From assembly GCA_037441965.1 (NCBI GenBank), contig JBBIRD010000001.1, positions 2,255 to 66,254 on the forward strand: a DNA stretch of 64,000 bases, in the 5' to 3' direction. The stretch comes from Candidatus Moraniibacteriota bacterium. GTDB taxonomy: Bacteria; Patescibacteriota; Minisyncoccia; Moranbacterales; UBA1568. Both the position numbers and the translations under genes were made by a program. A model generated the notes under the pieces. The model had not been told where the DNA came from and ran no database searches. It saw only the letters and a list, made by a program, of their open reading frames with translations. Numbering within the stretch: the first letter of the stretch is position 1; the number at the start of each line of letters is the position of its first letter. This document shows positions 3,801-64,000 of this stretch, in pieces.

Positions 3801-6800
3801 AATAGGACCGACCTTGCAGTCGGGGCTACGGGATATAGTTCTGCCACTGGTCGTGTCTATTTGTTTTACAATAGTGGGAGTACTCTCCCTACGACTGCCA
3901 GTCTTACGATTACCGGATCTCAGACAACTCAGTCTTTCGGATATGCTTTGGCAGTAGGAGATTTCAATGCTGACAATAGTACGGATCTCGTGGTAGGGAC
4001 TCATTCGGATTTTCTCTTTCCGAGAATGTGTACTGATGATCCTAGTGCTGACTTCGTTATTTATTATCCCTGTAATTATTATGATGCTGGGAGGGTTTAT
4101 ATTTTCTATGGTGATAGTACTATTCCTACGACCGCTAATACGGCAGATATTATCTTAGATGTTAATGACTTGTCCGCCACTGCACAACCACGATATTTTG
4201 GATCTTCATTGGCCACAGGAGATTTGAATGCTGATGGGAAAATAGATTTGGTTATTGGACAACCAAATTACGACGGCACAACTTATGTTGGTCTTGTTCG
4301 TATTCTCTATAATGATGGTGCTCTTGGGACTGATGTAACTATTAAAGGATGGAGCAATAATTCTTTTCTTGGTACCAGTCTTGTTACAGGAGATTTCAAT
4401 GCTAATGGTCGGACAAACTTGGTTGTGGGAGAAGGATTATCAGTTGGTGCAGGACGGATATCATTTTTCGAAACGCGTGATAATTTTGTATGGAATCCTC
4501 AAACATTGTCTCTCGCAGAAGGAGCGACAATGAAAGGTGATATGCTTGGTCAAGAGCAGAGAATCTCTGGTAGTGTAAATGCGGAGTTGTTTGGGAGTTC
4601 TCTTGCATCAGGGGATTTCAATAATGACGGGAAGAATGATCTCGCTGTCGGAGCGAGCGGATCATCTTCTCTCTATATATTTTATGCTGATGGCGAATAC
4701 CCTGTGAGAAGTTCAGATGCGAATGTTGTGATCAAAGGAATGTCAGTGACAGGATTAGGAACCACCCTTATCGCTGGAGACTTTAATGATGATGGAAAAA
4801 CTGACATTGCTACATCTAATCTCGAGTCTGTCTATATTTTCTATAATGATGGTTCATATCCTTTAGATGCTGTTACTGCGGATGTTGTTATTGCCGGAGA
4901 AACAGCCTATAGTTCAGGTTCTGCTTTTGGATCTTCGATGGTTTCGGAAGATATGAATGATGATGGGAAGAAAGATCTCGTTATCGGTTCATACGGATAT
5001 TCTACTTCTGCTTTTACAGCGACGAACACCGGTCGCGTGTATATCTATTATGCGAACGGAACACGAAATTTTGTCTGTACAACATCTCCTTGTACGGCTT
5101 CGGATGCTGATGTGATTATTAACGGATCAGAAGGATCCTATTTTGGTTATCAGATAGTGACAGGCGATTTTAATACCGATAATAAGACAGATTTGACGGT
5201 GAGTGCGCCTTTCCTTCAGACGAGTAATACAGGTAGAGTATACATATTTTATGTTGATGGGACTAATAATTTTGGAACAACGAGTTGTGTTGGAACGCCA
5301 GCACTCTGCAATGCTAGTGATGCTGATGTAACGATTATGAGTGAGGTGATTTCTTCTATGAATATCGATGGACTTGGTTACTCGATAGCTTCTGGTGATC
5401 TCAATAATGATGGGAAAATAGATTTGGCTATTGGAACGCAATCGTATTGTTATGACGATATTACTCAAGGTTGTTCTGGACGTATGTATTTAATATATAA
5501 TCAAGGTTCTGGGATATATCCTGCAAATGCAGGGGGTGCTGATGTGATCATAGCTGGTGGGCAAGATAGTTTTCTTGGTAGAAAGATTGCTATTGGTGAT
5601 GTTAATAGAGATAATCGTGAAGATCTTTTGGTATGGAGAGGAGATGTTACTAGTACTCACTATCTGGATGTATTTCTCAATGATGGATCAGGGTATCCGA
5701 CAAATCTCTCTGGAATAATAGAAAGTGATGTTAATTTTACTTATCCAGCAATGACAAATGATATGGACTCTTCTCAGGTTATTTTTGATGATTTGAATGC
5801 TGATGGATATCAAGATCTCGTCATCAGTGATATTGGTTTTAATGGAAAAGGAAAGATTTCTCTTTATACAACAAATGATACGAGTATCAGTGGTGAAGCA
5901 ACAGGAAATTATTTTGGTTCAGCTCTGGCAATAGGAGATTTTAATGCTGATGGGAAGAAAGATCTTGCTGTGGGTGCGCCCGGATATTCTTCAAATACCG
6001 GTCGTGTATATATTTTTTATAATGATAATCATCTTCCGTCATCTGCTTTTCTGGCTGATGCCATTATCACAGGCGAGACGACAGGTGATCAATTTGGGAA
6101 ATCGATTTCTCTTGTTGATTTCAATATTGATGGAGAACAGGATCTGGTTGTTGGTGCGAGTGGATATAGCACAAGTAAAGGAAGTGTATACTTTTTTGCT
6201 AATCTTGGAACAGGGGTTTATCCTGTGTCTGCAAGTGGTAGAGATACATTGATTGTTGGTGAGGCGGACAATAATTATTTTGGTGAAGTATTAGCATCAG
6301 ATGATATGGATCATGATGGATGGGCCGATATGGTTGTAGGTGCTCGAGGATATTTGTCAAATGCGGGTCGCGTTTATATGTTTTATTCGGATGGTGTATA
6401 TCCTGCAACATCCGATCTGGCAGATAGTATTATTACTGGTGAAACAGGCATCTTGTTCGGATCAGCTCTTGCTACAGGAGATTTTGATAGAGATGGCAAG
6501 AAAGATGTCGCAGTGAGTGCGCCTGGATATTCTTCAAATACCGGTCGTGTATATATTTTCTATTACAATGTAGGACTTGGCACATTTCCATCGACTGTTG
6601 CTACGGCCAATGCTACTATTACAGGATCTTTATATACACTTCCTGTGCCTTGCTATTTTTCTTGTACAGCTTTTGATCCATATTTTGGTTCAGCACTCGT
6701 TTCTAGTGATTTCAATAATGATGGCAAGACTGATTTAGCTGTTGGGTCTTACAATTATGGTTTTCAGAATTGGGATAGAGATCCTATGGATATCGATGCG

Positions 6801-7313
6801 AATCTCACTACATATCACTTTGGTCGTGTTGATATTTTTTATAATACTGCCACGGGTATATATCCTACGAGCGCGAGCAATGCTAATGTGACTATGGTAC
6901 CAGAATCAAATTCGTATCTTGGATCTTCTCTTTCTGTTGGTGATGTAAATGCTGATAAAAAGGCAGATCTGATAGCAGATGTTGCGAATGGTGTCTTTGT
7001 TTTTTATAATGATGGAGCGTACCCAGATAATGCCTATCCGGATATACGATCTGTTTTTGAACCAGATCTCAGGCCGTCGGTCAAAGTGAATACCCCTCAT
7101 ATTTCTGTCGTCGGCGACTTCAATGATGATGGAAAGGGTGATATAGTAACAGGTATCGGTGAATATTATTACTATGGGCCACTCTATTCTCAACTACTCA
7201 ATACGACTGGCTATGTGACGACAACGATTTCTGAAGTTCGTACTATTGATCGTTTCCTTCGTCTTCGCTTACGAGGCACTGCGAAATTTCAGGGACAAAA
7301 TAGTATACGATAA
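831..7313 (+). CDS. Giant (2160 aa) membrane-anchored surface protein with more than 25 FG-GAP/integrin-alpha-like repeats
   Basis: There is an N-terminal TM helix (LLYVALLVVPLFVYIFW). The motif GDFNxDGKxDLAVGAP...GRVYIFY recurs throughout, as do Cys-x(4-6)-Cys inserts (FCTSSFPTLCSASNADV, FVCTTSPCTASDADV, TSCVGTPALCNASDADV). Confidence 0.8.
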   Translation: MVRISPKNILLYVALLVVPLFVYIFWQMSSPETIVKTVKKYEQAGEKVRQDLIKSPTLPIVEKENTYQVVDSSIEDISIQYAKYSESIPPKDDENNQQNEQKDHQNGEEKKPQDLFKKPTLSIDFPKNYSQPINIKLDAERMIDITDLSGTSDYSVSTIAREIPEKNDLSTSSINNPDRSLFRKSLEQKLFGIDIRKIFQKTPSEDTILHYTSRDGRKSLLYTFIKDPSTGEKTLKHWTLYEYGTGTEQEQYQFSNAKVKINAEGIAEVYYFGTQEIQNEKVKSEVSPDLLARAQRAMEKETGQDILLSRNNPDFTLPAPYYIDKNGEQHNAEWQWNADKQILSVKFDPERNMYPIALDPTLSFTAPGQSNSMSMITGSSPSSFAIGDFNNDGKNDLAVGADTVVIFYGGFTFSKSVDSADVVISSTSYDGVGFGAGLVAGDFDGDNKTDLLVLGSWGTWYDPDYAVYIFYNSSIRTGSYNNADFQNSSFRGRLSIGLGDLNDDGKKDLIIGEPNNRYKADSVYIYYAGIPLSSGPQVTLTGITDTDGGNLRGAFGSSFGVGDFNADGKNDIAVSAPAFGSYYNTGQYPGWYNTYQGRIYIFYGGSITTKNALSADRVIIGEAGGLGREISGVVDLNGDGYVDILTIDTGPQKLSMFYNNAGTISTPPDVSIASAFVYGATWNDFNGDGRADFAIINRFYSSIDIIYNDGDYPADMANADVRIGGQPVFYNKAHIVSSGDLNGDGQADIVTNSQDGSNTSILYSQNGQVNTNQYALGEASGDAFGTAMVAGDFNADGTTDLAVGAPAGSGHSSNTGRVYLFYNRGSYPRDASSADVIIDGGAIDDFFGFSLIAGDFNGDKKIDFAVGSPGSSLNTGSTYVFYADGTNDFGTIFCTSSFPTLCSASNADVILTGGLPGIGIGSSFGTTLTTGDFNSDGKMDLAIGATGYSSNTGSVSVFYAPFSGVNVTLTGENVNDLFGKALIAGDFNHDNRTDLAVGATGYSSATGRVYLFYNSGSTLPTTASLTITGSQTTQSFGYALAVGDFNADNSTDLVVGTHSDFLFPRMCTDDPSADFVIYYPCNYYDAGRVYIFYGDSTIPTTANTADIILDVNDLSATAQPRYFGSSLATGDLNADGKIDLVIGQPNYDGTTYVGLVRILYNDGALGTDVTIKGWSNNSFLGTSLVTGDFNANGRTNLVVGEGLSVGAGRISFFETRDNFVWNPQTLSLAEGATMKGDMLGQEQRISGSVNAELFGSSLASGDFNNDGKNDLAVGASGSSSLYIFYADGEYPVRSSDANVVIKGMSVTGLGTTLIAGDFNDDGKTDIATSNLESVYIFYNDGSYPLDAVTADVVIAGETAYSSGSAFGSSMVSEDMNDDGKKDLVIGSYGYSTSAFTATNTGRVYIYYANGTRNFVCTTSPCTASDADVIINGSEGSYFGYQIVTGDFNTDNKTDLTVSAPFLQTSNTGRVYIFYVDGTNNFGTTSCVGTPALCNASDADVTIMSEVISSMNIDGLGYSIASGDLNNDGKIDLAIGTQSYCYDDITQGCSGRMYLIYNQGSGIYPANAGGADVIIAGGQDSFLGRKIAIGDVNRDNREDLLVWRGDVTSTHYLDVFLNDGSGYPTNLSGIIESDVNFTYPAMTNDMDSSQVIFDDLNADGYQDLVISDIGFNGKGKISLYTTNDTSISGEATGNYFGSALAIGDFNADGKKDLAVGAPGYSSNTGRVYIFYNDNHLPSSAFLADAIITGETTGDQFGKSISLVDFNIDGEQDLVVGASGYSTSKGSVYFFANLGTGVYPVSASGRDTLIVGEADNNYFGEVLASDDMDHDGWADMVVGARGYLSNAGRVYMFYSDGVYPATSDLADSIITGETGILFGSALATGDFDRDGKKDVAVSAPGYSSNTGRVYIFYYNVGLGTFPSTVATANATITGSLYTLPVPCYFSCTAFDPYFGSALVSSDFNNDGKTDLAVGSYNYGFQNWDRDPMDIDANLTTYHFGRVDIFYNTATGIYPTSASNANVTMVPESNSYLGSSLSVGDVNADKKADLIADVANGVFVFYNDGAYPDNAYPDIRSVFEPDLRPSVKVNTPHISVVGDFNDDGKGDIVTGIGEYYYYGPLYSQLLNTTGYVTTTISEVRTIDRFLRLRLRGTAKFQGQNSIR

Positions 7314-7403: not shown

Positions 7404-9293
7404 ATGGAGATGAAAAGATTTTTTCTCAAAAAAAGAATACTCTATATTTGTTTTCTTCTTCTTTCTATCTTTATTGGGAATAAATTTTTTGATTATCAGA
7501 AAACAGCACAGCATCTTCAAGGAATAGAGAAATTACTTGCGTTAACATCTGAAGATTTAAATGATATTAAATCTGATCCTCATAAAACAAAAGAGTCAGT
7601 AAGGGAAGCAATCGATGCATATTCTCAGCATATTTCAGACACCCTCTCGATTGCTCAAAAAATAACAAATATGGAGGCTTCTCAGGAAGCGTTCGTTGCT
7701 ATCTTTAGGAAGGTTGCTTCACAATTGGGAGATATCCGAATGATTCAGCAGAATACTGAATTAACATCATCACAATCTGGAATTATTGAAAGAATAAGAG
7801 ATGTAAATATGTATGTGCAGGAGCAATCAGTAGAGCGACTCACAACACTCGCTCAGAGTGATAACGCTATAGACCAATCGAAAGAAGGGAAGAAGATAGG
7901 TGCATTACCCTCTTGTTCTGATTGCAATGTTATTCTTATCTCCCTTACCACTCTTCGTCCTGATCGTATGGGTATTTATGGATATCAGAAACAAACTACT
8001 CCGCATATTGACGCATTCTTCAAGAACTCAATTATCTTCAGAAATACGGTTGCGCCTACTTCTTGGACTACCCCAAATGCTCTATCACTCTTTACTGCTG
8101 TTTTCCCATACCGACATAACATTATTTCAAGAGAAATTGATCCGATTTACAATCGAAAAATTCTGACATTGGCAGAGATGCTGAAAAAAAATAATTATAC
8201 TACAGGGGCATTTACAGGAGGAGGGGATTATAATAATAAATACAGTGGACTCAACCGTGGGTTTGATTTCTACCTTGATGAAGCAAATTATAAGACATTC
8301 AAAATAAAAGCAGATATTTCTATCGGGACAGGCCCTCTTTTTTATTCTCCACTTCGAGAGTTTCTTCCGCTAGGAACCGATTGGATGGAACAGAATTATA
8401 AAAAAAAGTTTTTTCTTTTCTTGCAGGGATATGATCCTCACTGTCCTTTGAGTCCACGCGAACCATTTGCTCAGCAATTTACTAAAAAGATGAAAAGTGA
8501 TGTAGATTTTTCTGTATGTCATACAACATACGATGATACGGAGCCATTATATGAAAATGGAAAGAAATATTGGGAAGTAATGACGACATCAGATGGAACA
8601 AGAAGCCCTTTCAAGATGCGACTTTCTCAGGAAGATGTTGATTATATGAATGCTCTGTATGATGCTCGTGTGGCAGAGATGGATTTTTATTTAAATAATT
8701 TCTTTGAAAAACTCAAGAGTCTTGGTCTAGAAGAAAAGACGGTGATCGTATTGATGGCAGATCATGGAGAGATGCTCGGAGAACACGGACGGTTTATGAG
8801 GGGTGGCACTATTAGAGGAAACTCATATAAGCAATCTCTTCATTTTCCTCTTCTTATCAAGCATCCAAAAATAACAGAACCTCTCATCGTGGAGGATATT
8901 GTGAATACAGTGGATATTATGCCGACACTTCTTTCTATGTTGGATATAACAGATCCTCAGGAAGATATACGACAAGGTCACTCGCTTCATATCTCAAACT
9001 TCCAGAGTGATCCGACCAATGAATATGGTTTTTCAGGAGCCAAATATGAAAGGAGTAATGTGATTGGATATTTTGATTTTCCTACTGCATCTGAATCTGT
9101 TCAGGACAAGAAATGGAAATTGATCAAAGAAACTATCTTCGATAATGATGGTTTTTCAGTAGAAAAAATCTCATATAAACTCTTTGATCTTGAGAATGAT
9201 CCTAACGAGAACATCAATCTTTATGACGCAGAAAGAGAAGAAGCAGAGAAGCTCAAAGTTGTATTAGAGAAGTGGCTTGATCAATATCGATGA
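7404..9293 (+). CDS. Membrane-anchored sulfatase/LtaS-like enzyme of the alkaline phosphatase superfamily
   Basis: It has an N-terminal TM helix and the metal-ligand motif DHGEMLGEHG. Where a sulfatase has CxPxR, this protein has TTPN, which implies a Thr nucleophile as in LtaS/EptA; that reading is an inference. Confidence 0.65.
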   Translation: MEMKRFFLKKRILYICFLLLSIFIGNKFFDYQKTAQHLQGIEKLLALTSEDLNDIKSDPHKTKESVREAIDAYSQHISDTLSIAQKITNMEASQEAFVAIFRKVASQLGDIRMIQQNTELTSSQSGIIERIRDVNMYVQEQSVERLTTLAQSDNAIDQSKEGKKIGALPSCSDCNVILISLTTLRPDRMGIYGYQKQTTPHIDAFFKNSIIFRNTVAPTSWTTPNALSLFTAVFPYRHNIISREIDPIYNRKILTLAEMLKKNNYTTGAFTGGGDYNNKYSGLNRGFDFYLDEANYKTFKIKADISIGTGPLFYSPLREFLPLGTDWMEQNYKKKFFLFLQGYDPHCPLSPREPFAQQFTKKMKSDVDFSVCHTTYDDTEPLYENGKKYWEVMTTSDGTRSPFKMRLSQEDVDYMNALYDARVAEMDFYLNNFFEKLKSLGLEEKTVIVLMADHGEMLGEHGRFMRGGTIRGNSYKQSLHFPLLIKHPKITEPLIVEDIVNTVDIMPTLLSMLDITDPQEDIRQGHSLHISNFQSDPTNEYGFSGAKYERSNVIGYFDFPTASESVQDKKWKLIKETIFDNDGFSVEKISYKLFDLENDPNENINLYDAEREEAEKLKVVLEKWLDQYR

Positions 9294-9918: not shown

Positions 9919-11886
9919 ATGCAAAAAATTATTTTTTTTGTTGTTGTGATTATTTTTGGGGGAGTTTTCTTTTTTTCTTCTTTACAAAAGAAAGAAGTGA
10001 GTCAAGTGTATTGGTTTATTCCTGATGGTATGAGAGCTGATCCTGATGTTTTTAATATATATAAATGGGCAAAGGAAGGAAAACTTCCCAATATCAAAAA
10101 ATTAATGGATCAAGGCTCTTATGGATATTCTATCCCTGATTTTCCATCTCATACTCCAACAAACTGGGCATCATTGATGACTGGAACGCATCCTGTGACA
10201 CATGGTATCTCTGATGGCCCTATGCATGTCGAAGGTTATCCTCTCGAAAAACCCTCTGTTGCTGGTTTTGGTTCTCAGGCGAAAAAGACGGATCCTATCT
10301 GGAAGACACTAGAGTCAGCAGGGAAGAAAGTAGCACTTCTCTCTATTCCTGGATCAACACCGCCAGAATTAAAAAATGGTATTACAATTCGTGGTCGCTG
10401 GGCTCCTTGGGGTTTTGATACGCCTGCTATCAATTTTGAACCAAAAGAGAAACTAGAAGAACGCAAATCCACAGGAAGAGGATTTAAGCTTTTTTATCTT
10501 GGGCAACAATTAACGCAATTTATTGATAAAAATACTCCTTCCGAATGGAGTTTTTCACCAGAATCATTCAGTCCGAGTATAGAGATGAAAATAAATGTGT
10601 ATGGTATGACGCTTTTTGGTCTTGTGATAGATAAAACTGATGATAATGAAATAAACTATGACTCTGTTGTATTCTCTTTTGATAAGAAAACAGAGATAAC
10701 GACATTGAAACAAGGAGAGTGGAGTGATTGGACACCGGTAACGCTCACTTTCAAGGAATCAACAGTGGCCTCCGATATGAAAATTAAGGTTATCAAACTG
10801 TGGAATACGGGTAATTTCCGTGTTCGTGTTTTCTTCAATAACGCAAATGAGTTTCTTACAGAACCATCTTCTGTAGCGAGAGAGATGACAACAGCGATTG
10901 GGCCGATGGTTGATTTTGTAGACAACTGGCCTGCTCAACTGATTTATGAAGAAGAGGATAAAGATACGTTTCTTGAAGAAGCTAATATGTCATTAGATTG
11001 GCACAAGAAAGCAGCTGGATTTATGTTGGATACTTACAAGCCAGACTTTTTCATACAAGATACTTATACCCCAAATCAGATGCTTGAAAGCAGGTGGTGG
11101 CACGGGAAAATAGCTGGTGAGAAAATGGATTATAACACACAAGATTCTGCATCATCTGAGTGGAATGATATTTACTCGATGTATAAAAAGTTAGACGATG
11201 TTCTTGGAGAGGCGATGAAACATCTTGATAAGAATGCTCTTATTGTTCTTTCGTCTGATCATGGCATTATCCCTATTTATAAACAAATAAAAATTAATAA
11301 TCTTTTCGCTCAAAAGGGTTGGCTTAAATATACTATCAATCAGACAACAGGAGAACCAACGATTGACTGGGAGCATAGTAAGGTTGTTTATCTTAAGATG
11401 GCATATGTCTACATCAAACCAGAAGGACTAGGTGGTCCTTGGAAAAGGGGATCAGGACCAGAATATGAGAAATTGCGTCAGGAGGTGATAGATGCTCTAA
11501 AGGAGGTAAAAGATGATAATGGTGTGAGCCCGATTACAGAAGTAGTCCGATGGGAAGATGCTCCCTCTTTCCTTGAATTACCAACGGACAGAATCGGAGA
11601 TTTAGTGCTTGAGGCTACCCCAGGGTATCAACTATGGGAAGAAGTTGATGCTAATCAGCAGATATTCGGTAATCCGTTAACAACAGGATACAAACAAGCA
11701 GTAGATCCAAAAACGACAAAAGGATTGTGGACCCCGTTTATTATTGCCGGTCCTGGTGTAAAACAAGGATATCAGATGACTGATCCTATTAGTCATATCG
11801 ATCAACTTCCAACCATACTTGATCTTCTTCATATTAATATTCCTACTGATGTTGTAGGAAAAGTACTGAAAGAAATTCTTAAGTAG
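9919..11886 (+). CDS. Membrane-anchored nucleotide pyrophosphatase/phosphodiesterase (NPP)-like enzyme of the alkaline phosphatase superfamily
   Basis: It has an N-terminal TM helix and the NPP-type motifs YWFIPDGMRADPD, a SHTPTNWASLMTG Thr-nucleophile motif, and SSDHG. It also carries an extra C-terminal domain. Confidence 0.65.
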   Translation: MQKIIFFVVVIIFGGVFFFSSLQKKEVSQVYWFIPDGMRADPDVFNIYKWAKEGKLPNIKKLMDQGSYGYSIPDFPSHTPTNWASLMTGTHPVTHGISDGPMHVEGYPLEKPSVAGFGSQAKKTDPIWKTLESAGKKVALLSIPGSTPPELKNGITIRGRWAPWGFDTPAINFEPKEKLEERKSTGRGFKLFYLGQQLTQFIDKNTPSEWSFSPESFSPSIEMKINVYGMTLFGLVIDKTDDNEINYDSVVFSFDKKTEITTLKQGEWSDWTPVTLTFKESTVASDMKIKVIKLWNTGNFRVRVFFNNANEFLTEPSSVAREMTTAIGPMVDFVDNWPAQLIYEEEDKDTFLEEANMSLDWHKKAAGFMLDTYKPDFFIQDTYTPNQMLESRWWHGKIAGEKMDYNTQDSASSEWNDIYSMYKKLDDVLGEAMKHLDKNALIVLSSDHGIIPIYKQIKINNLFAQKGWLKYTINQTTGEPTIDWEHSKVVYLKMAYVYIKPEGLGGPWKRGSGPEYEKLRQEVIDALKEVKDDNGVSPITEVVRWEDAPSFLELPTDRIGDLVLEATPGYQLWEEVDANQQIFGNPLTTGYKQAVDPKTTKGLWTPFIIAGPGVKQGYQMTDPISHIDQLPTILDLLHINIPTDVVGKVLKEILK

Positions 11887-55375: not shown

Positions 55376-56380
55376 ATGGAAAATTGTATGAAACAACGAA
55401 TTTTTTCTGGAATAAAACCATCAGGCGATCTTCATCTCGGAAATTATCTGGGTGCTATTTCTCAGTGGGTTACTCTTCAGAATGAGTATGAATCATTGTT
55501 TTGCGTCGTTGATCTGCATGCTATCACAGTGAGTCAAGATCCGATTGAGCTTCGTCAAAAGACATTAGAAATCGCTAAGATTTATTTGGCTTCGGGTATT
55601 GATCCTACGAAATCAGTGATGTTTGTCCAATCGCATATACCAGAACATACAGAACTTGCTTGGATACTGAACACTATTACACGCTTTGGTGATTTGGAAA
55701 AGATGACACAATTCAAAGATAAATCAGCAAAAAGCGAAAAGGAAACTGTCGGCATCGGCCTTTTTGATTACCCTGTTCTGATGGCGAGTGATATTTTACT
55801 TTATGATACTCAGATTGTTCCTGTTGGTAAGGATCAACTTCAGCATATCGAACTTACACGAACATTAGCACGGCGTTTTAACGAGCGTTTTGGTGAAGTA
55901 TTTGTTATTCCAGAAGGAAGAGTATCGAAAGAGGGTGAGGTAATTATGGCACTCGATGATCCAACAAAGAAGATGTCTAAATCAGCTCGGAGCGAATATA
56001 ATTCTATTGCTTTAACTGACGATGCTGATGCAATACGACGGAAGATAAAAAAAGCAGTTACTGATAGTGGAAGTGAGATTGTTTATTCTGATGATAAACC
56101 AGCACTCAAGAATCTGATCAATATTTATTCTCTTCTTTCTCATACAACAACCGCAGATATTGAAAGAACTTATCAGGGAAAAGGATATGGCGATTTCAAA
56201 ACAGATTTAGCTGAAGTAATTGTGAATTTCTTGATACCATTTCAAGATCGTATGAAAAATATTTCTGATGATGAAATTATCTCTCTTTTGAAAACTGGCG
56301 CCGAAAAAGCCAAAGAAAGAGCGGAAGCAAAAATGAAACAAGTGAGAGAGAAAGTAGGATTTCTTCTTGCAAAAGAATAA
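55376..56380 (+). CDS. trpS: Tryptophanyl-tRNA synthetase
   Basis: It has the HIGH-region sequence IFSGIKPSGDLHLGNYLGA and KMSKS. Confidence 0.9.
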   Translation: MENCMKQRIFSGIKPSGDLHLGNYLGAISQWVTLQNEYESLFCVVDLHAITVSQDPIELRQKTLEIAKIYLASGIDPTKSVMFVQSHIPEHTELAWILNTITRFGDLEKMTQFKDKSAKSEKETVGIGLFDYPVLMASDILLYDTQIVPVGKDQLQHIELTRTLARRFNERFGEVFVIPEGRVSKEGEVIMALDDPTKKMSKSARSEYNSIALTDDADAIRRKIKKAVTDSGSEIVYSDDKPALKNLINIYSLLSHTTTADIERTYQGKGYGDFKTDLAEVIVNFLIPFQDRMKNISDDEIISLLKTGAEKAKERAEAKMKQVREKVGFLLAKE

Positions 56381-58304: not shown

Positions 58305-59354
58305 ATGGCACTTAAAGTAGGTATTGTAGGACTTCCCAACGTCGGAAAATCGACGCTTTTCAAGGCACTTACGCGTAAGGTGGTTGATATCAATAATTAT
58401 CCTTTTTGCACTATTGAACCCAATGTTGGTATTGTTGAAGTACCGGATGAACGATTAGGAAAACTTGCAAAAATGTCAGGAACGAAAAAGATTATTCCTG
58501 CGGTGATAGAATTTGTTGATATTGCAGGACTCGTGAAAGGAGCAAGTGAAGGCGAGGGCCTCGGTAATAAGTTTTTGCAAAATATTCGTGAAGTTGATGC
58601 AATTGTCGAGGTAGTGAGAGTTTTTGAGAATCCTGATATTATTCATGTTCACAATGCAATCGATCCGACAAATGATATAGAAATTATCAATACTGAACTC
58701 ATTCTTGCTGATTTAGAAACAATTACGAAGCGCAAACTTAAAACAGGTAAGGATGCTAGAGCAGGGAAAAAGGAGGCGGTAACAGAGATGAACATTCTTG
58801 AGAAATTAGAGAAAGAGTTTGAAGCAGGACGATTGCCACATACTCTGCTCAAAACTTTCTCTGTAGAAGAAACAAAGATGGTAAAGAATTTACAGCTTCT
58901 CACAACAAAACCGTTTCTCTATGTATACAATGTCTCTGATATCGATCGTCCATTGAATGCAGATCTTGAGAGTCGTCCTTATGTGAAGCTTGATATCAAG
59001 ATAGAAGAAGAGCTCATCGAGATGTCGCCAGAGGAAATACAAGAAATGGGACTTGTTTCGCATATTGGTGATTTGGCACAATCAGCGTACTCACTCCTTG
59101 GGCTTATGACATATTTCACAACAGGTGTCGAAGAAACGCGTGCTTGGACAATACCTATCGGATCGACAGCTCCGCAAGCAGGCAGTGCTATTCATAATGA
59201 TTTTGAAGAGAAATTTATTCGTGCTGAAGTTATCCATTGGAGCAAACTTCTTGAAGCGGGTTCATGGAGTAATGCCCGTGATACTGGCATCCTCCGCCTC
59301 GAAGGAAAAAACTATATCGTCCAAGATGGCGATGTCATTGTTTTTAAGATATAA
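58305..59354 (+). CDS. ychF: Ribosome-binding ATPase YchF (Obg-family GTPase)
   Basis: It contains [19 protein letters not shown] and [12 protein letters not shown]. The start is probably at 58305, not the track's 58251. Confidence 0.88.
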
Positions 59355-59371
59355 GATAATGGTATATTTTT

Positions 59372-61945
59372 ATGAATGAAAAGAAAAGAATACTTTTGTG
59401 TTATTTTGGTGTATCACATTTTTCTTATACTCCTACAGATATAGGTTATATTGTAGCTATTTTAGAACAGAAATTTTCATCAACAGAGTATATTTTTGAT
59501 ATCGTTCAATTAGATTATGAATTATCTGTTGATAGAAAAGAGGGTTCGATTGTTAATCCTCATCTAAAATATATTGAAAGAAGTACGCGACTTATTGAAT
59601 ATTATCATCCATACGCAGTATTTTTCTTCTTAGAGAATGTCTTATGGAGTAAAGTGTTTGCACTAGGAAGAACAAAGAGTATTGCTAAGAATCTTCGTTC
59701 TAATAACCCAAAATTATTTATTGGTTTACAGAGTTTTAAGATTCAACAAATACAAATAGATCAAGTGTTAGATAACAATTTAGCGGATTGTATAATTATC
59801 GGTGACCCAGAAGAATTATTTCTAAAATTGAGCGAGATATTATTGAGAATGCCTGTCATTGGAGTGAGATATCAAAAACAATTTGGTGAAATGAACTATA
59901 AGAAGCAGTCTTTCCTTATGGCAAAAGAAAACGTAGAGACTATTTCAGTTGGTAGTCTTGATCGAATACCTTCTCCGTACCTAAATCATACTTTTGATAA
60001 TTTTCTCCAATCATCACAAATAATATCTAATGGACATTTTCGAGCATTCCTCGTTTCATCTCGAGGGTGTCGTTTTGGTTGTTATTATTGTTTTCGGAGT
60101 ACAAAATTTGAAAAGATACAATATTTTTCAGCAAAACGATTTTATGATGAATTAGAATATTTATTTAATACTTTCCGTATACATCATTTTTTTGTTTTAG
60201 ATGACGCTTTTATTTATTCTCGAAAACGCTTAGAGGAATTTGAACATGAGTTTCAAACTCGATTAAATAAGAATCCTGACTTACAAAAAGTAGATCTTTT
60301 CGTTATGGCAAGACCAGAAAGCATAAACGAGGAAATAGTAAAAATATTGAAAGCGATGAATGTAAAGTATATACAGATTGGATTACAGACAGTAAATCCG
60401 TCTTTGCAGGTTTTTATGAGAAGGAGACAAGATGTGGTTCATTTTGTGAAAATCAGAGAGTGGTTAAAAAAGTATAACATCCTTTTGCATCTAGATGTTG
60501 TGATTGGTTTACCGGGAGATTCTGTTGAATGGATGAAGGAAACAATGCGTTATGTATTACTTATGGATCCATTTTCTGTTCAGATTAAGCAGTTTTATCT
60601 CGGACCTAATACGCTTTTTTCAATTAGAACAAAAGAATACAATATTAAGATTGATGATACTGAATCAAGTTTTAATACACCATATGTGATCAGTGCAAAC
60701 AATATAGATGATCAGTATTTTACAGAGACAAATCATTTCATTATGAATCAAATCAAGGATAATCCACAGATTCGGTGGAAATATTTATCGAAGAAGCAAT
60801 CATTTATTAGTGGTTTATCTACAAAGATTTCTTCGGAGCATGAAACATCTCTTCATAATGAGCATAGAGGTTCAGACGATCGGATTCAGAAATACTTTAA
60901 TGTTTTATGGCATATAGGCAGCAGTAAAGGTAAGAATAGTGTATATGTGGTAACAGCAGTAGATGATCAGTACGCTTATATTGTTTCGCGTTCTGCAACA
61001 ATTTGTATGGCAATAGATCAATTATCAGGGTGTATAGTATGGAAATTTGAAGTTTTTTCCTTCCAAACGGATCATATATCTCCTTATCTTAAGGTGTCTG
61101 CAGGCAAAGTATATTTTCGAGCAGTCGATCGAAATCTGTATTGCTTAGATGCAAAAAATGGAAATCGCTTATGGGTTTTTCTTGAAGAAAATGTAGAAGA
61201 TGATACTTGTGTTATTGATCAATATGTCCATTGTATATCTATTGTTACATCAGGTGGTCTTTTTACACGAAGAAAAAAAATAGTAACTTTAGATATGAGA
61301 ACTGGTAAGAAGAGATGGGAACATTTTATTAGTATTGATCAATCAATAGCCTTGATACATGATGAAAAGAATCACTTTATGTATATTCGTGAGGGTGACA
61401 GGCAGGTTTCTTCGGTACAGATAGAGAATCATAAATTAAAGTGGACACATTGTTATTATCAGAATATAGACGGGCAGATAGTTATTGATCAATCAGGAAA
61501 GGATCTTTTCTTTTTATCTACTGATGGAAAGCATTATTCTATAAAAACAAAAGACGGATCCACGGAAATGCTTTTTCAATCGCGTGGATTTGATAAACAA
61601 TCTATTCTCTTTGTATATAATGAATATATTATTTTATATTCGTGTAATAAGGGAATACAATGCATTCATCTAAAGACAGGAATGATTCGGTGGATATACT
61701 CTTTGAACAGCGTTACTTCTGTAAATTATGTGGTACTAGATGCAAGTATGTTTATTTATAAAGAAGAGGATTTACTCATTGAGATTGATATAGTGACAGG
61801 AATGACAAAATCGTGTTTTTCCCTGACGGGTATTGGTCAAGATAGTATTCTTATATATAGCGAAAAAAAGAAACGCTTTTTCTTATCTATGAATTCTGGT
61901 GATTTATTTTGTTTTTCAAGACAGATGTTCTCACATTTACGATAG
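59372..61945 (+). CDS. Radical SAM enzyme with a B12-binding-like N-terminal domain, fused to a C-terminal PQQ/BamB-like beta-propeller of about 350 aa
   Basis: The CxxxCxxC motif SRGCRFGCYYCF is present, preceded by a Rossmann-like N-terminal domain. The C-terminus has 7-8 PQQ-type blades (LYCLDAKNGNRLWVF, IVTLDMRTGKKRWEHF, IHLKTGMIRWIY). Confidence 0.75.
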   Translation: MNEKKRILLCYFGVSHFSYTPTDIGYIVAILEQKFSSTEYIFDIVQLDYELSVDRKEGSIVNPHLKYIERSTRLIEYYHPYAVFFFLENVLWSKVFALGRTKSIAKNLRSNNPKLFIGLQSFKIQQIQIDQVLDNNLADCIIIGDPEELFLKLSEILLRMPVIGVRYQKQFGEMNYKKQSFLMAKENVETISVGSLDRIPSPYLNHTFDNFLQSSQIISNGHFRAFLVSSRGCRFGCYYCFRSTKFEKIQYFSAKRFYDELEYLFNTFRIHHFFVLDDAFIYSRKRLEEFEHEFQTRLNKNPDLQKVDLFVMARPESINEEIVKILKAMNVKYIQIGLQTVNPSLQVFMRRRQDVVHFVKIREWLKKYNILLHLDVVIGLPGDSVEWMKETMRYVLLMDPFSVQIKQFYLGPNTLFSIRTKEYNIKIDDTESSFNTPYVISANNIDDQYFTETNHFIMNQIKDNPQIRWKYLSKKQSFISGLSTKISSEHETSLHNEHRGSDDRIQKYFNVLWHIGSSKGKNSVYVVTAVDDQYAYIVSRSATICMAIDQLSGCIVWKFEVFSFQTDHISPYLKVSAGKVYFRAVDRNLYCLDAKNGNRLWVFLEENVEDDTCVIDQYVHCISIVTSGGLFTRRKKIVTLDMRTGKKRWEHFISIDQSIALIHDEKNHFMYIREGDRQVSSVQIENHKLKWTHCYYQNIDGQIVIDQSGKDLFFLSTDGKHYSIKTKDGSTEMLFQSRGFDKQSILFVYNEYIILYSCNKGIQCIHLKTGMIRWIYSLNSVTSVNYVVLDASMFIYKEEDLLIEIDIVTGMTKSCFSLTGIGQDSILIYSEKKKRFFLSMNSGDLFCFSRQMFSHLR

Positions 61946-62034
61946 TTATCACAGAGAGACATTGCTATATTTACTCATTTATGTTATTTTAAGAAAGGAG
62001 TTTTTTATATTTAATTTTTTTAACATATTTTTGT

Positions 62035-62247
62035 ATGTTGTACAAAATAAAGAAAAGAACATTGTTCGTCTCAGGGGTATTCCTTCTGAGTTTGCTGAGT
62101 TTTTTAAACATAAATAATAAAGAGCGTATCTCACGATCTACCGTAAACTTTATACCAGAAGCGAATGCTGATGTTCCATATTGTAGTCCTTGCGGATGTC
62201 CTTATACACCGCAAGAGTGTTCGGGAGATGCAGGAGATGGAATTTAG
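62035..62247 (+). CDS. Small (70 aa) Cys-rich peptide with an N-terminal signal/leader-like segment
   Basis: A positively charged and then hydrophobic N-terminus (KIKKRTLFVSGVFLLSLLSFL) precedes the C-terminal core CSPCGCPYTPQECSGDAGDGI. It lies 90 nt after the rSAM gene and 27 nt before the next gene. Confidence 0.45.
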   Translation: MLYKIKKRTLFVSGVFLLSLLSFLNINNKERISRSTVNFIPEANADVPYCSPCGCPYTPQECSGDAGDGI

Positions 62248-62274
62248 TTATAATTTTTTAGAATTTCCTTATAT

Positions 62275-63162
62275 ATGGATAAATATAAAATAAAATTTTT
62301 GCTCCTCTTTTTATTGATTCTTGTTCTAGTATGTTTTGCATATTTCTTCTTCAAGTTCAAGAAACCATCTGTACCTATTGATGAAACATATGTTCTTGGT
62401 AAACAAAACGAATTATATAGTTTTAATGATTCTTCACAATCCAAAGTAGAAGTAATAAAAGAATTAAAAGATGTTTCTTTGGATACAAAAATAAACACAA
62501 AAACAAGGCTATTAGCAGGAACAGTGGTCGTTGGATCTTTTTTTGATTTTGGTATGCAATTAGAAAAAGGATTTTCTCCAAATTCTTTTACCGAAAGAGA
62601 GATCTATGAATATTCTAAACAAATAAATTCTTTAGGTAATTCGAAAACAGATTTACTGACAGCATATATTGGTTTGACATTTTATCCTCAAGAGATGACT
62701 GCTGAATCAGTCTCTTCTCTTCTCCGTTCATATCAAGAATATGCAAAGAATCTATCCTCTACAGATACAGATTGTTCTGGGGAATCCAAGTTTGCTTCTG
62801 TGTTGTATTTGTCTCAGAAAAACAATCTCACCCCTGTTATTGATGAGTTTGGTAATTATTTTGATGCTTTTGAGCGAGCAGATAATTTATGTCGTACAAA
62901 TCGCAAGAAGAATGTTTTTAGGCAATTTATGTGGTTAGCTGCTTTGAGTGATATTGGTAAATCTTCTAGAGAAGAAGAAAAGGCTCAGGAAATTGTTCAA
63001 TTTCTGATCGATAAAGAAAATTTGGTCAGTAAAGCAACATTATCGCAATACCTTAAAAATAGTTACTTTGCTTCTAAGAAAGAGCCTGATACTGTTATCA
63101 TTGTTGATCGATTGATTGCAAAATATCCAGCATTTAAATCTTTCGTAGAGAGTTTACAATAA
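62275..63162 (+). CDS. Hypothetical membrane-anchored protein in the rSAM cluster
   Basis: It has an N-terminal TM helix and I recognise no motifs. Spacing is tight on both sides. Confidence 0.5.
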   Translation: MDKYKIKFLLLFLLILVLVCFAYFFFKFKKPSVPIDETYVLGKQNELYSFNDSSQSKVEVIKELKDVSLDTKINTKTRLLAGTVVVGSFFDFGMQLEKGFSPNSFTEREIYEYSKQINSLGNSKTDLLTAYIGLTFYPQEMTAESVSSLLRSYQEYAKNLSSTDTDCSGESKFASVLYLSQKNNLTPVIDEFGNYFDAFERADNLCRTNRKKNVFRQFMWLAALSDIGKSSREEEKAQEIVQFLIDKENLVSKATLSQYLKNSYFASKKEPDTVIIVDRLIAKYPAFKSFVESLQ

Positions 63163-63194
63163 TATCTCCTATTTTTCTATCTGTACCTTTGATT

Positions 63195-64000
63195 ATGCAA
63201 ATGAAAAATGCATCTTTGAATTTTTTAAAGACAGAAATTGAAAAGCAATGTTTTGAAACAATTAATGATAATGAAATACTACGTCAGTCATTTCCTCATA
63301 TGAAATGGTTGTTTGATTTCCGAATGATGATTTTGAAATCAAATTACCTTAATCTTATTAGCGAAATATTTTGGGAGAAATATCATAATCACAAGCCTTT
63401 TCAGATTGGTGGGTTAGAGATGGCTGCTATACCTCTTGTGTCAGCTATTTTGATGAAATTTCATGAACACGGAAGAGAGCTAAATGGTTTCATAATCAGG
63501 AAGTCAAGAAAAAAAACTGGTTTGTTGAAGATGATTGAAGGTGAAATTACTCACGAGCCAATTATTCTTATTGATGATTTAATCAATTCAGGTTCGAGCA
63601 TCTTGAGGCAAATTGATGTTTTAGATCAATTGAACAGGCGTGTAGATGAGATTTTTGTAATACTTCGATTTCGAGATAAAGAACACTATTCGTTTCTGCA
63701 GGAGAAGAATATAGTTCTTTATTCTCTTTTTGAGTTAGATGATTTTACAGATACTCTATTCATCTCTAATCTTAAAGAAAGTATAGAAAATAATCAGGGT
63801 ATTCAAAATCCATTCGAATCAAATCCTGTGTGGTATTTTCAAGGGAAATCACCAAATTATTTTTTTGTTTTTCCAAAATCTGCACCAATTGTTTGTGGTA
63901 ATAAAGTTTTTTTTGGTACTGATGACGGGACATTTTTTGCGTTAGGAACAGATAGGGGAGATATACAATGGACATATAAGATTTTATTTGGATCGCAAGG
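63195..64000 (+). CDS. Type I phosphoribosyltransferase (PyrE-like) fused to a PQQ-like beta-propeller, 3' partial
   Basis: It has the PRPP-binding motif PIILIDDLINSGSS and a C-terminal PQQ-type blade FFALGTDRGDIQWTYK. The frame is open to the window end. Confidence 0.6.
   Translation, partial: MQMKNASLNFLKTEIEKQCFETINDNEILRQSFPHMKWLFDFRMMILKSNYLNLISEIFWEKYHNHKPFQIGGLEMAAIPLVSAILMKFHEHGRELNGFIIRKSRKKTGLLKMIEGEITHEPIILIDDLINSGSSILRQIDVLDQLNRRVDEIFVILRFRDKEHYSFLQEKNIVLYSLFELDDFTDTLFISNLKESIENNQGIQNPFESNPVWYFQGKSPNYFFVFPKSAPIVCGNKVFFGTDDGTFFALGTDRGDIQWTYKILFGSQ

Follow-up and report, generated by a model that had tools for sequence, protein, structure and literature searches.

The window, i.e. 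the entire 64-kb stretch of DNA analyzed here, ends inside an open reading frame (ORF) that encodes a phosphoribosyltransferase (PRTase) domain joined to the first part of a β-propeller, from now on referred to as PRTase-propeller (Table 1). Translation yields 268 codons without a stop between the start codon and base 64000. Three further genes are located directly upstream on the same strand, encoding a B12-type radical SAM protein with a propeller of its own, a small precursor-like peptide and a membrane-anchored protein. The gaps between the four genes measure 27-89 nt, and a promoter and terminator scan of positions 59000-64000 returned nothing above shuffled expectation that would separate them. 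The ORF and all motifs of the original prediction were borne out, including the propeller segment quoted there, VFFGTDDGTFFALGTDRGDIQWTYK, which spans aa 238-262 (63906-63980).

Table 1 Features of the gene cluster at the window edge
Feature	Position	Strand	Evidence
B12-type radical SAM protein with paralogous propeller, 857 aa	59372..61945	+	Radical_SAM 8.4e-19, PQQ_2 1.6e-16
Precursor-like peptide, 70 aa	62035..62247	+	Family HMM E 4e-17
Membrane-anchored helical protein, 295 aa, c2 family	62275..63162	+	hhalign probability 96.4%, E 1.4e-9
PRTase-propeller ORF, N-terminal 268 aa	63195..64000	+	Translation; ATG at 63195, open at window edge
OPRTase-like type I phosphoribosyltransferase domain, aa 1-190	63195..63764	+	TIGR00336, PDB profile, Foldseek
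Flexible catalytic loop RKSRKKTGLLKMIEGEI, aa 102-118	63498..63548	+	Family alignments
PRPP-binding loop PIILIDDLINSGSS, aa 122-135	63558..63599	+	Family alignments
Start of eight-bladed BamB/PQQ-like propeller	63825..64000	+	Aligns to strands 206-259 of the P0045 AF2 model

The radical SAM-propeller protein matches an NCBIfam model for RiPP maturation radical SAM C-methyltransferases at 3.9e-12, below the cutoff. A homologue lies in the same cluster of the closest relative found (locus L061), and in one fusion protein (P0324) this radical SAM type is joined directly to the PRTase domain. Searching metagenome contigs with the radical SAM-propeller protein found no relative; entry P0139 of the protein collection is the window's own copy. 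At the sequence level, its propeller is a paralogue of the family propellers (phmmer 1e-33) that, by eye, is more divergent and carries neither the EADW..SSP nor the GLEFG motif. The N-terminus of the peptide is basic; the remainder includes a hydrophobic helix, the motif ANA-DVP and a tail rich in Cys, Gly and Asp (YCSPCGCPYTPQECSGDAGDGI). The membrane protein is 43% identical to the matching gene in L061, and its family is encoded within 5 kb of the PRTase-propeller gene in 22 of 49 related loci. An exact copy of the window's membrane protein was found only on a 2.6-kb Logan contig that stops within the PRTase gene, and scanning metagenome contigs for an exact 45-nt match returned nothing.

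The PRTase domain is structurally similar to orotate PRTases (OPRTases). The NCBIfam model for pyrE (TIGR00336) matches the window protein with E 5.5e-18 and phmmer searches against the PDB retrieve OPRTases at 6.5e-10 to 1.6e-7, while the family profile detects 2p1z at 7.8e-19, 5hkf at 8.1e-18 and 2wns at 4.5e-17. An AF2 model of aa 1-190 adopts the type I PRTase fold with a Foldseek target TM of 0.78-0.82 to OPRTases, the nearest structures being those of Mycobacterium tuberculosis and Corynebacterium diphtheriae (TM about 0.8). Domain scan and structure prediction both support the fold that had been proposed from the motifs, and they do so well above chance. In an alignment of 45 sequences, R102, K103, S104, R105, K106, K107, G109, E115 and G116 as well as D127 and D128 of the PRPP loop are invariant, and over 45-124 sequences, non-CPR members included, the RK-x-(R/K)-K loop, the DD pair and the E-G pair are invariant or nearly so. 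Based on E. coli PyrE and on OPRTase segments from the PDB, the flexible loop aligns to R99-K100-x-x-K103-x-x-G106 of E. coli PyrE. The equivalents of Arg99, Lys100 and Lys103 are kept, with R102, K103 and K106 being invariant in the CPR set; in the wider set, the third loop position is Arg/Lys or Lys, and P0321 has R-R at the first pair. With short actinobacterial PyrE (EC 2.4.2.10; 5HKF/5HKI/5HKL and 2P1Z, profile E 8e-19 to 8e-18), the family shares the type I PRTase fold, the loop R-K-x-x-K-x-x-G...E-G, the acidic pair of the PRPP loop and the N-terminal 'hood' segment.

The designation PyrE-like therefore holds for fold and motifs, however, it does not extend to PyrE identity. The TIGR00336 scores of the window protein (65.3 bits) and of the full-length homologue from L001 (72.8 bits) fall below the equivalog cutoff of 106.8. 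Asn takes the place of Thr128 in each of the 10 family members that were aligned (Asn131 of the window protein), the position of Arg156 is variable, and a conserved Phe/Tyr is inserted between the Asp155 and Arg156 equivalents. Thr128 and Arg156 are orotate-contacting positions in OPRTase-orotate structures. Unlike PyrE, the family carries a fused propeller of about 340 aa, and its gene context points to peptide maturation and not to pyrimidine synthesis. No pyr genes occur among the recurrent neighbors in the related loci examined, and a second PRTase was not found within the window. The window protein is probably not the housekeeping OPRTase.

Of the propeller, the window includes only the 'velcro' strand that closes it and the larger part of blade 1. 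This part alone scores weakly (PF13570, E 0.03) and aligns to full-length homologues with propellers at 1.5e-58 (Pfam PF13570). The AF2 model of such a homologue (P0045) contains eight four-strand blades (DSSP), and its pLDDT of 92 and pTM of 0.85 point to a fixed two-domain unit. Its propeller matches BamB, YxaL and Cake8 in Foldseek searches and resembles BamB and YxaL (PF13360, PF13570) in having eight blades, with E 1e-26 to 1e-28 and a target TM of 0.8-0.92. BamB is a protein-binding scaffold. In contrast to BamB, the family protein is fused to an enzyme domain and has neither a lipoprotein nor a secretion signal, and BamB models score below cutoff (141 bits vs 285). The model for PQQ-dependent dehydrogenases (TIGR03075) reaches only 86.5 bits against a family cutoff of 480. 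As the N-terminus (MQMKNASLNFLKTEIEK...) contains no hydrophobic signal or lipobox, the PRTase-propeller is predicted to be cytoplasmic. Conserved polar propeller motifs specific to the family are VPKSxP, EADWxGSSP and GLE(F/Y)G; VPKSxP and DWxGSSP are, by eye, also present in two non-CPR members. The same propeller type is combined with a catalytic domain in the adenylating enzyme ACSF4/AASDH (Pfam Beta-prop_ACSF4 match) and in AfsK-type kinases (NCBIfam AfsK match, 1.7e-24), however, these have a different catalytic domain, a different domain order and an unrelated context, so that the analogy is one of architecture only.

Homologues are 32-54% identical to the window protein, and in 46 of 58 related species loci an ORF of 530-600 aa is present without interruption. 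L061, the closest relative identified (54% identity), likewise has an unbroken frame to about 550 aa. Because these homologues are intact, the window gene is expected to continue past base 64000 to about 550 aa. When the PRTase domain alone was used in an exhaustive search, the best 150 matches were nearly all proteins of 530-580 aa with the PRTase at the N-terminus, and 100 clusters at 50% identity were recovered with E<=1e-30. This PRTase subfamily is almost always fused to a propeller, i.e. the fusion is the rule. The domain join recurs throughout a large family and does not represent a frameshift artefact, in agreement with the predicted continuation of the PRTase into a PQQ/BamB-type propeller without a stop. 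The fusion had also been called unusual: it is undescribed in the literature searched but, with 100 clusters at 50% identity, it is not rare. Where apparent stand-alone PRTases of about 200 aa could be checked, they proved to be fragments or split genes, one of them being a split gene with the propeller ORF located behind it. Further, apparent N-terminal extensions in L020, L027 and L042 are due to in-frame read-through upstream of the real start, and some assemblies contain broken gene copies (L047, L060 and L063).

Where they occur, genes of the peptide family usually lie 1-3 kb from the PRTase-propeller gene. The peptide family HMM yielded 40 matches in 34 sources, specifically, 33 of the 58 related loci and the window. 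Within 4 kb of the PRTase-propeller gene, Gly/Asp-rich ORFs show a 2.6-fold enrichment over the region 4-10 kb away (P 1.6e-5); since the strict composition-only detector misses the short tail of the window peptide, the HMM result is used for the window. In several loci the peptide is encoded twice, the leaders being conserved and the cores hypervariable. The cores contain much Gly and Asp and in some cases also Ser, Cys or His; the peptide tails are strongly acidic, and the PRTase loop, with RKSRKK, is unusually basic. Both a hydrophobic helix and an AxA-D-x-P motif are present in CPR leaders; the CPR peptides look membrane-inserted or secreted, and the AxA motif suggests signal-peptidase-like cleavage. 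C39-peptidase ABC transporters were not seen in the window or in CPR loci. Non-CPR loci show the same pattern with other leaders: in L065 and L069, double-glycine-type leaders precede (GD)n cores and adjoin C39-peptidase ABC exporters, L064 encodes a secreted protein with a (GDG)n end and L068 an HxsA-like (SHG)n peptide amid radical SAM genes. No Pfam or NCBIfam family was found for the peptides, for the c2, c7, c9, c12 and c16 neighbors or for the C-terminal half of the AMMECR1 proteins.

Tailoring enzymes are associated with the PRTase-propeller both as neighbors and as fusion partners. Besides radical SAM in P0324, the fused domains are Asp/Asn β-hydroxylase (P0322 and P0321), HlyC acyltransferase (P0328 and P0292), Stf0 sulfotransferase (P0262), formyltransferase (P0194) and AMMECR1 (L015). 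The fusion clusters P0263 and P0328 have several full-length members on multiple contigs. Among 49 related loci, YcaO is a neighbor in 22, AMMECR1 in 17 and SagB in 11; the YcaO proteins are of the TOMM type and the SagB dehydrogenase neighbor scores 108.5 bits, above the cutoff of 78.4. Taken over related loci and fusions, the tailoring enzymes comprise YcaO, SagB, Asp/Asn hydroxylases, ATP-grasp, JmjC, HlyC and sulfotransferase. YcaO, SagB and AMMECR1 were not found in the 64-kb window. Gene order varies between loci while the gene set persists, which argues for selection on linkage and against mere shared ancestry.

These loci display traits of RiPP-type clusters, namely small adjacent genes, in part present in several copies, whose products combine a conserved leader with a hypervariable core, and recognized tailoring enzymes, represented in the window by the B12-type radical SAM protein. 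Similar to TOMM or linear azole systems (microcin B17 type), Gly-rich cores containing Cys or Ser follow a conserved leader, and many related loci encode a SagD-family YcaO and a SagB dehydrogenase, with PmbA/TldD present in L066. However, many loci and the window lack YcaO and SagB, Asp predominates in the cores, the CPR leaders differ in their hydrophobic helix and AxA-D-x-P motif, and the PRTase-propeller has no counterpart in known TOMM clusters. In the literature searched, the only RiPP enzymes with a peptide-handling propeller are the prolyl-oligopeptidase macrocyclases GmPOPB and OphP; their propeller is seven-bladed, gates a serine protease, occurs without a PRTase and has no sequence relation to the family. 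The same literature yielded nothing relevant on PRTase-propeller fusions, on AMMECR1 together with YcaO, on phosphoribosyl RiPPs or on YcaO or OPRT in Patescibacteria.

The PRTase-propeller is a two-domain enzyme that is conserved across bacterial phyla and unstudied. It probably helps to mature the neighboring peptides and is not an enzyme of nucleotide synthesis; it is best read as the core enzyme of an undescribed RiPP-like peptide-maturation system. Specifically, we propose that it is a signature component of clusters making small exported Gly/Asp-rich peptides and acts as a PRPP-dependent enzyme distinct from housekeeping OPRTases; to this proposal as a whole we assign a probability of roughly 55%. 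The full protein of about 550 aa would be cytoplasmic, with an OPRTase-derived PRPP-binding domain packed against an eight-bladed BamB-like propeller. Its cluster partners in the window are the radical SAM-propeller protein, the 70-aa peptide and the c2 membrane protein. The propeller would dock the precursor peptide and/or partner tailoring enzymes. Judging from domain identity, the PRTase domain would add a 5-phosphoribosyl group from PRPP to a nucleophile on the peptide or to a peptide-derived heterocycle. Since nearly all motifs of OPRTases are preserved in the PRTase domain, the acceptor may also be orotate or some other free base. With CPR peptides apparently membrane-inserted or secreted and the enzyme cytoplasmic, modification would have to precede export and leader removal. 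The products, either small peptides or the C-terminal ends of larger secreted proteins, would combine a conserved leader with a variable core. The suggestion in the original prediction that a substrate may be held by the propeller and acted on by the PRTase fits the gene context and the domain fusions. Type I PRTases are not known to carry out PRPP-dependent peptide modifications.

A more far-reaching version of this proposal is possible though tentative, namely a new cross-phylum RiPP class in which the PRTase phosphoribosylates the Gly/Asp-rich precursor and the BamB-like propeller takes the place of the RiPP recognition element. The acceptor might then be an Asp carboxylate or an orotate-like ring formed from the conserved Asp that starts the core, the latter giving a peptidyl-nucleotide. 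Interchangeable enzymes could plug into this unit, including radical SAM, YcaO/SagB, Asp hydroxylase, acyl-, sulfo- and formyltransferases and AMMECR1.

The PRTase-propeller may alternatively serve as a non-catalytic scaffold or sensor whose PRTase only binds PRPP, a nucleotide or the acidic tail, the whole unit recruiting tailoring enzymes in the role of a RiPP recognition element. PRTase folds have been reused as regulators, e.g. in PyrR and PurR, and the likeness of the propeller to the scaffold protein BamB, the many different catalytic domains attached to the unit, as expected for a docking platform, and the pairing of a basic loop with acidic peptide tails are all consistent with such a function. 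However, proteins with an overall identity of 30-50%, distant non-CPR members included, all share the loop Arg/Lys residues, E115-G116 and the catalytic acidic pair, which is more typical of an active enzyme and makes a purely non-catalytic role unlikely. Less likely still is a housekeeping or salvage PRTase acting on orotate or another nucleobase, merely tethered to a partner or complex by its propeller. All best sequence and structure matches are indeed OPRTases, the loop, DD motif and SG..YY.D.R-like N-terminal segment are retained and some members are annotated as orotate phosphoribosyltransferase by JGI, but the sub-cutoff PyrE scores, the altered positions around Thr128 and Arg156 and the lack of recurrent pyr neighbors speak against it, as do fusions and neighbors that are peptide-tailoring enzymes and peptide exporters instead of nucleotide metabolism. 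In addition, most Patescibacteria are not known to synthesize pyrimidines de novo.

It is highly improbable that the protein functions in anti-phage defense as an effector related to ShosT or to type III-A retron PRTases. The PADLOC matches pointing in this direction (PRTase_III-A, E 1.8e-6 and 25.8 bits; ShosT, 7e-4) cover only the region around the PRPP loop and, like the Pfam PRTase-CE match (E 1e-3, below cutoff), fall far short of the matches to OPRTases; defense genes, reverse transcriptases included, do not recur alongside, and the window gene sits among housekeeping genes. Identity as a defense PRTase was dropped because the PADLOC matches are weak and partial. An equally small chance is given to PRTase and propeller being separate genes here, split by a stop or frameshift just past the window: the window does end inside the ORF and broken copies exist in three assemblies, however, the domain join (aa 190-268) is already in frame inside the window and the gene is intact in most related loci and in the nearest relative.

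If the peptide-maturation proposal is correct, it would add a PRPP-dependent PRTase as a new enzyme class and an eight-bladed propeller as a new recognition module to ribosomal peptide maturation, and it is directly testable. It also points to a large unannotated family of exported peptides rich in Gly and Asp. These are abundant in Patescibacteria, whose genomes are small and considered poor in secondary metabolism. Hundreds of database entries, at present listed as 'PQQ-binding-like beta-propeller repeat protein' or as 'BamB/orotate phosphoribosyltransferase', could receive more informative names, and a working context would be provided for recurrent neighbors, specifically the c2 and c7 membrane proteins, Hxs-type clusters and AMMECR1 fusions.

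HxsABCD and AmmeMemoRadiSam are uncharacterized radical SAM systems defined in NCBIfam/TIGRFAMs. The frequent AMMECR1 neighbors and the AMMECR1 fusion are reminiscent of AmmeMemoRadiSam, however, the AMMECR1 match reaches only 58 bits against the AmmeMemoSam_A cutoff of 99, no Memo protein was found and the radical SAM enzyme of the window is of the B12 type and not the AmmeMemoRadiSam enzyme. With respect to HxsABCD, L068 encodes HxsD and several radical SAM enzymes next to the PRTase-propeller, in addition to the (SHG)n repeat peptide.

The predicted in-frame fusion of a PRTase to a PQQ-type propeller is real and conserved. Translation of the window frame starts at an ATG at 63195 and continues without a stop to base 64000 (268 codons), the junction between the two domains already lying within the window, and the three segments quoted in the original prediction are located at aa 102-118, 122-135 and 238-262. 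A pattern scan over one genome per GTDB species yielded 58 loci with 32-52% identity to the window, mostly from Patescibacteria (CPR), for example Paceibacterota, Kaiserbacteria and Moraniibacteriota, together with a few MAGs carrying other or generic labels. An unbroken frame of 530-600 aa is found in 46 of these loci, the other 12 representing contig-end cuts, length-inflating upstream read-through or broken genes; L061, the nearest relative identified (53.6% identity), likewise has an unbroken gene of 552 aa. A profile search returned at least 120 full-length members (540-597 aa), known in databases under generic names only ('PQQ-binding-like beta-propeller repeat protein', 'BamB/orotate phosphoribosyltransferase'). 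With only the PRTase domain as query, an exhaustive HMMER search over 1.84 billion cluster representatives gave 100 matches at E<=1e-30, and the best 150 matches are almost all 530-580 aa proteins with an N-terminal PRTase. One 198-aa 'stand-alone' PRTase was rejected as a split gene followed by a propeller ORF. In the AF2 model of homologue P0045 (pLDDT 92.2, pTM 0.85), residues 1-190 form the PRTase domain, and a short linker leads to a propeller of eight four-stranded blades that the N-terminal strand closes; Foldseek groups this propeller with BamB, YxaL and designed propellers of eight blades.

The N-terminal domain is clearly a PRTase. Its top NCBIfam model is pyrE (TIGR00336, E 5.5e-18), the top phmmer matches among PDB sequences are exclusively orotate PRTases (OPRTases; 2p1z, 5hkf, 5hkl, 2wns), and the window fragment as modelled by AF2 (pLDDT 79) matches the OPRTases of M. 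tuberculosis and C. diphtheriae (target TM 0.78-0.82). With a 45-sequence family profile, the same PDB matches rise to 8e-19 through 4.5e-17 and cover the entire OPRTase domain. The PRPP machinery is intact: all 45 sequences of the family alignment share R102-K103-S104-R105-K106-K107-x-G109, E115-G116 and D127-D128, and the loop pattern, E-G and DD pair are also seen in an alignment of 124 sequences and among distantly related non-CPR members. The description 'PyrE-like' holds for fold and motifs but not for PyrE itself, as the window ORF scores 65 bits against a TIGR00336 cutoff of 106.8 bits; its Pfam Pribosyltran match is likewise below cutoff. Family members were further compared with PDB OPRTase segments and with E. 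coli PyrE, whose HMM match has the same coordinates as the profile's match to PDB 1oro. The Thr128 position is Asn in 10/10 aligned family members, the Asp155 equivalent is followed by an extra Phe/Tyr, and residues vary at the Arg156 position. Thr128 and Arg156 contact orotate in OPRTase-orotate complexes; the acceptor is therefore probably not orotate.

In the window, the PRTase-propeller gene is the fourth in a same-strand row with gaps of 27-89 nt, and a terminator scan found no convincing terminator between the four genes. Housekeeping genes lie further upstream (trpS, a phosphomutase and ychF; beyond them EF-G, EF-Tu, LeuRS and RNase J). Neighbors were clustered over the 58 loci and counted within 5 kb in those 49 loci that have 8 kb or more of flanking DNA. 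The most frequent are a small peptide (27/49, family HMM), the membrane-anchored helical protein c2 (22/49, no Pfam/NCBIfam family), YcaO (22/49; TOMM SagD family, 1.7e-41), a TPR protein (20/49, Pfam TPR), an AMMECR1-domain protein of ~630 aa (17/49; PF01871 2.4e-12, AmmeMemoSam_A-like below cutoff), a multi-pass membrane protein (13/49, no Pfam/NCBIfam family) and a SagB-family dehydrogenase (11/49; 108.5 bits, above the cutoff of 78.4). This gene set is retained across loci, with variable order and orientation. By profile comparison (hhalign probability 96.4%, E 1.4e-9) the window's 295-aa protein, which has no Pfam/NCBIfam family, falls into c2, and L061 carries the window's four genes in another order plus TPR and multi-pass membrane proteins.

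Coordinates of features in the window and in related loci
Feature	Location	Strand	Remark
FG-GAP-repeat protein	window 831-7313	+	2160 aa
Sulfatase/phosphodiesterase-family proteins	window 7404-9293; 9919-11886		
trpS	window 55376-56380		~3 kb upstream of cluster
Radical SAM-propeller fusion	window 59372-61945	+	B12-type; divergent propeller
Peptide ORF	window 62035-62247	+	70 aa
Membrane protein	window 62275-63162	+	295 aa
PRTase-propeller	window 63195-64000	+	open at edge
trpS directly 3' of PRTase-propeller	L005:9603-10256; L006:11698-12915		
AMMECR1 proteins, divergent, adjoining PRTase-propeller	L001:8020-9906; L060:6087-7949; L070:10011-11897	-	~620-690 aa
AMMECR1 protein fused in frame to PRTase-propeller	L015:9989-13234	+	1082 aa
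Small signal-peptide proteins	L061:9492-9845; L013:5936-6439	-	
Small signal-peptide protein	L070:3613-4101	+	
Stand-alone radical SAM, then PCMT-like methyltransferase	L063:10001-12130		
Radical SAM-PRTase protein P0324	L068:8001-10916		
HxsA-like repeat peptide	L068:5059-5364		
Dense cluster	L068:1-18916		1.5-Mb contig

CPR peptides start with a basic N-terminus and a hydrophobic helix; a spacer then leads to the motif (A/S)-x-A-(D/E)-(V/A/I/T)-P, and the tail behind it is hypervariable, with much Gly, Asp and Ser and often Cys. The family HMM places the window's 70-aa ORF here (E 4e-17), with a basic N-terminus, hydrophobic helix, ANA-DVP and a Cys-rich tail (YCSPCGCPYTPQECSGDAGDGI). No NCBIfam model matches the family, including this ORF. 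Peptide HMM matches occur in 33/58 loci, mainly 1-3 kb from the PRTase-propeller gene, with two copies in several loci. By a composition-only detector, such peptides are enriched 2.6-fold close to the gene (P 1.6e-5); the detector returned zero hits in the window because the Gly/Asp stretch of the window peptide is short.

In the longer proteins matched by the exhaustive search, the PRTase-propeller unit is fused to additional domains: a window-type radical SAM enzyme joined directly to the PRTase domain (P0324), a formyltransferase (P0194), a Stf0 sulfotransferase (P0262), an Asp/Asn beta-hydroxylase at either end (P0322, P0321), a HlyC-type acyltransferase (P0328, P0292) and an unassigned 690-aa extension (P0263). 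Assembly chimerism was rejected for P0263 and P0328, since each cluster has several full-length members on multiple contigs. The non-CPR fusion contigs have 54-64% G+C, except L068 (34%; window, 38%), and carry classical peptide-export and tailoring genes. Locus L065 combines a 142-aa ORF, in which DEVEPPAGDGDGDGGGG... comes after a double-glycine leader (LLKYVAGG), with genes for a CPBP protease, HlyD-type protein and C39-peptidase ABC exporter; beside the PRTase-propeller of L069 lie a 74-aa ORF (…EELDQVLGAS-GDSG…GDGDGDGDGGDGGGGDGGGDGG) and genes for a C39 ABC exporter, Asp hydroxylase, ATP-grasp enzyme and JmjC protein. A secreted 393-aa protein with a C-terminal (GDG)n…GDGF directly follows the hydroxylase-PRTase-propeller of L064, and L066 contains two Asp hydroxylases, PmbA/TldD, an acetyltransferase, hydrolases and a giant protein whose N-terminal segment is GD-rich. 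In L068, an (SHG)n HxsA-like repeat peptide is accompanied by HxsD and seven or more radical SAM genes. Across phyla, PRTase-propellers are linked to Gly/Asp-rich exported peptides, and enzymes that tailor peptides or proteins are repeatedly fused or adjacent to them.

We regard the PRTase-propeller cluster as a probable RiPP-like cluster whose signature enzyme is new. The propeller may dock the peptide or partner enzymes, and the PRTase domain could transfer phosphoribose to the peptide or a peptide-derived heterocycle, a step that would precede export. Such PRPP-dependent peptide phosphoribosylation would be new chemistry, a tentative proposal to which we assign a probability of about 0.3. 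A literature search found neither a description of the fusion nor any report that a PRTase or BamB-like propeller takes part in the maturation of peptides. It is unlikely that the protein is a non-catalytic adaptor, with its propeller and recurrent fusions on one side and its conserved PRPP-binding residues on the other. A housekeeping OPRTase with an added scaffold, to be weighed between the OPRTase fold and the altered orotate contacts, is more doubtful still. Very improbable are a defence PRTase, for which PADLOC matches were weak and partial, and an artefactual fusion, the frame being unbroken in most loci.

The AMMECR1-domain neighbors have a C-terminal half of ~330 aa without a family match; the PRTase-propeller context may offer a lead to the role of AMMECR1. 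Small signal-peptide proteins recur in the clusters, one group (c20) ending in ...GGxNxGVFKKV. Stand-alone homologues of the window's radical SAM enzyme (~485 aa) are common; in L063, one is followed by a PCMT-like (isoaspartyl) methyltransferase near a broken PRTase-propeller, a possible sign that tails rich in Asp-Gly undergo aspartimide or isoAsp chemistry. The L068 cluster includes two PRTase-containing proteins. The position of trpS in the window relative to L005 and L006, two related genomes, probably reflects residual synteny. Near the start of the window, two sulfatase/phosphodiesterase-family proteins follow a giant protein made up almost entirely of FG-GAP repeats (E 1e-173).
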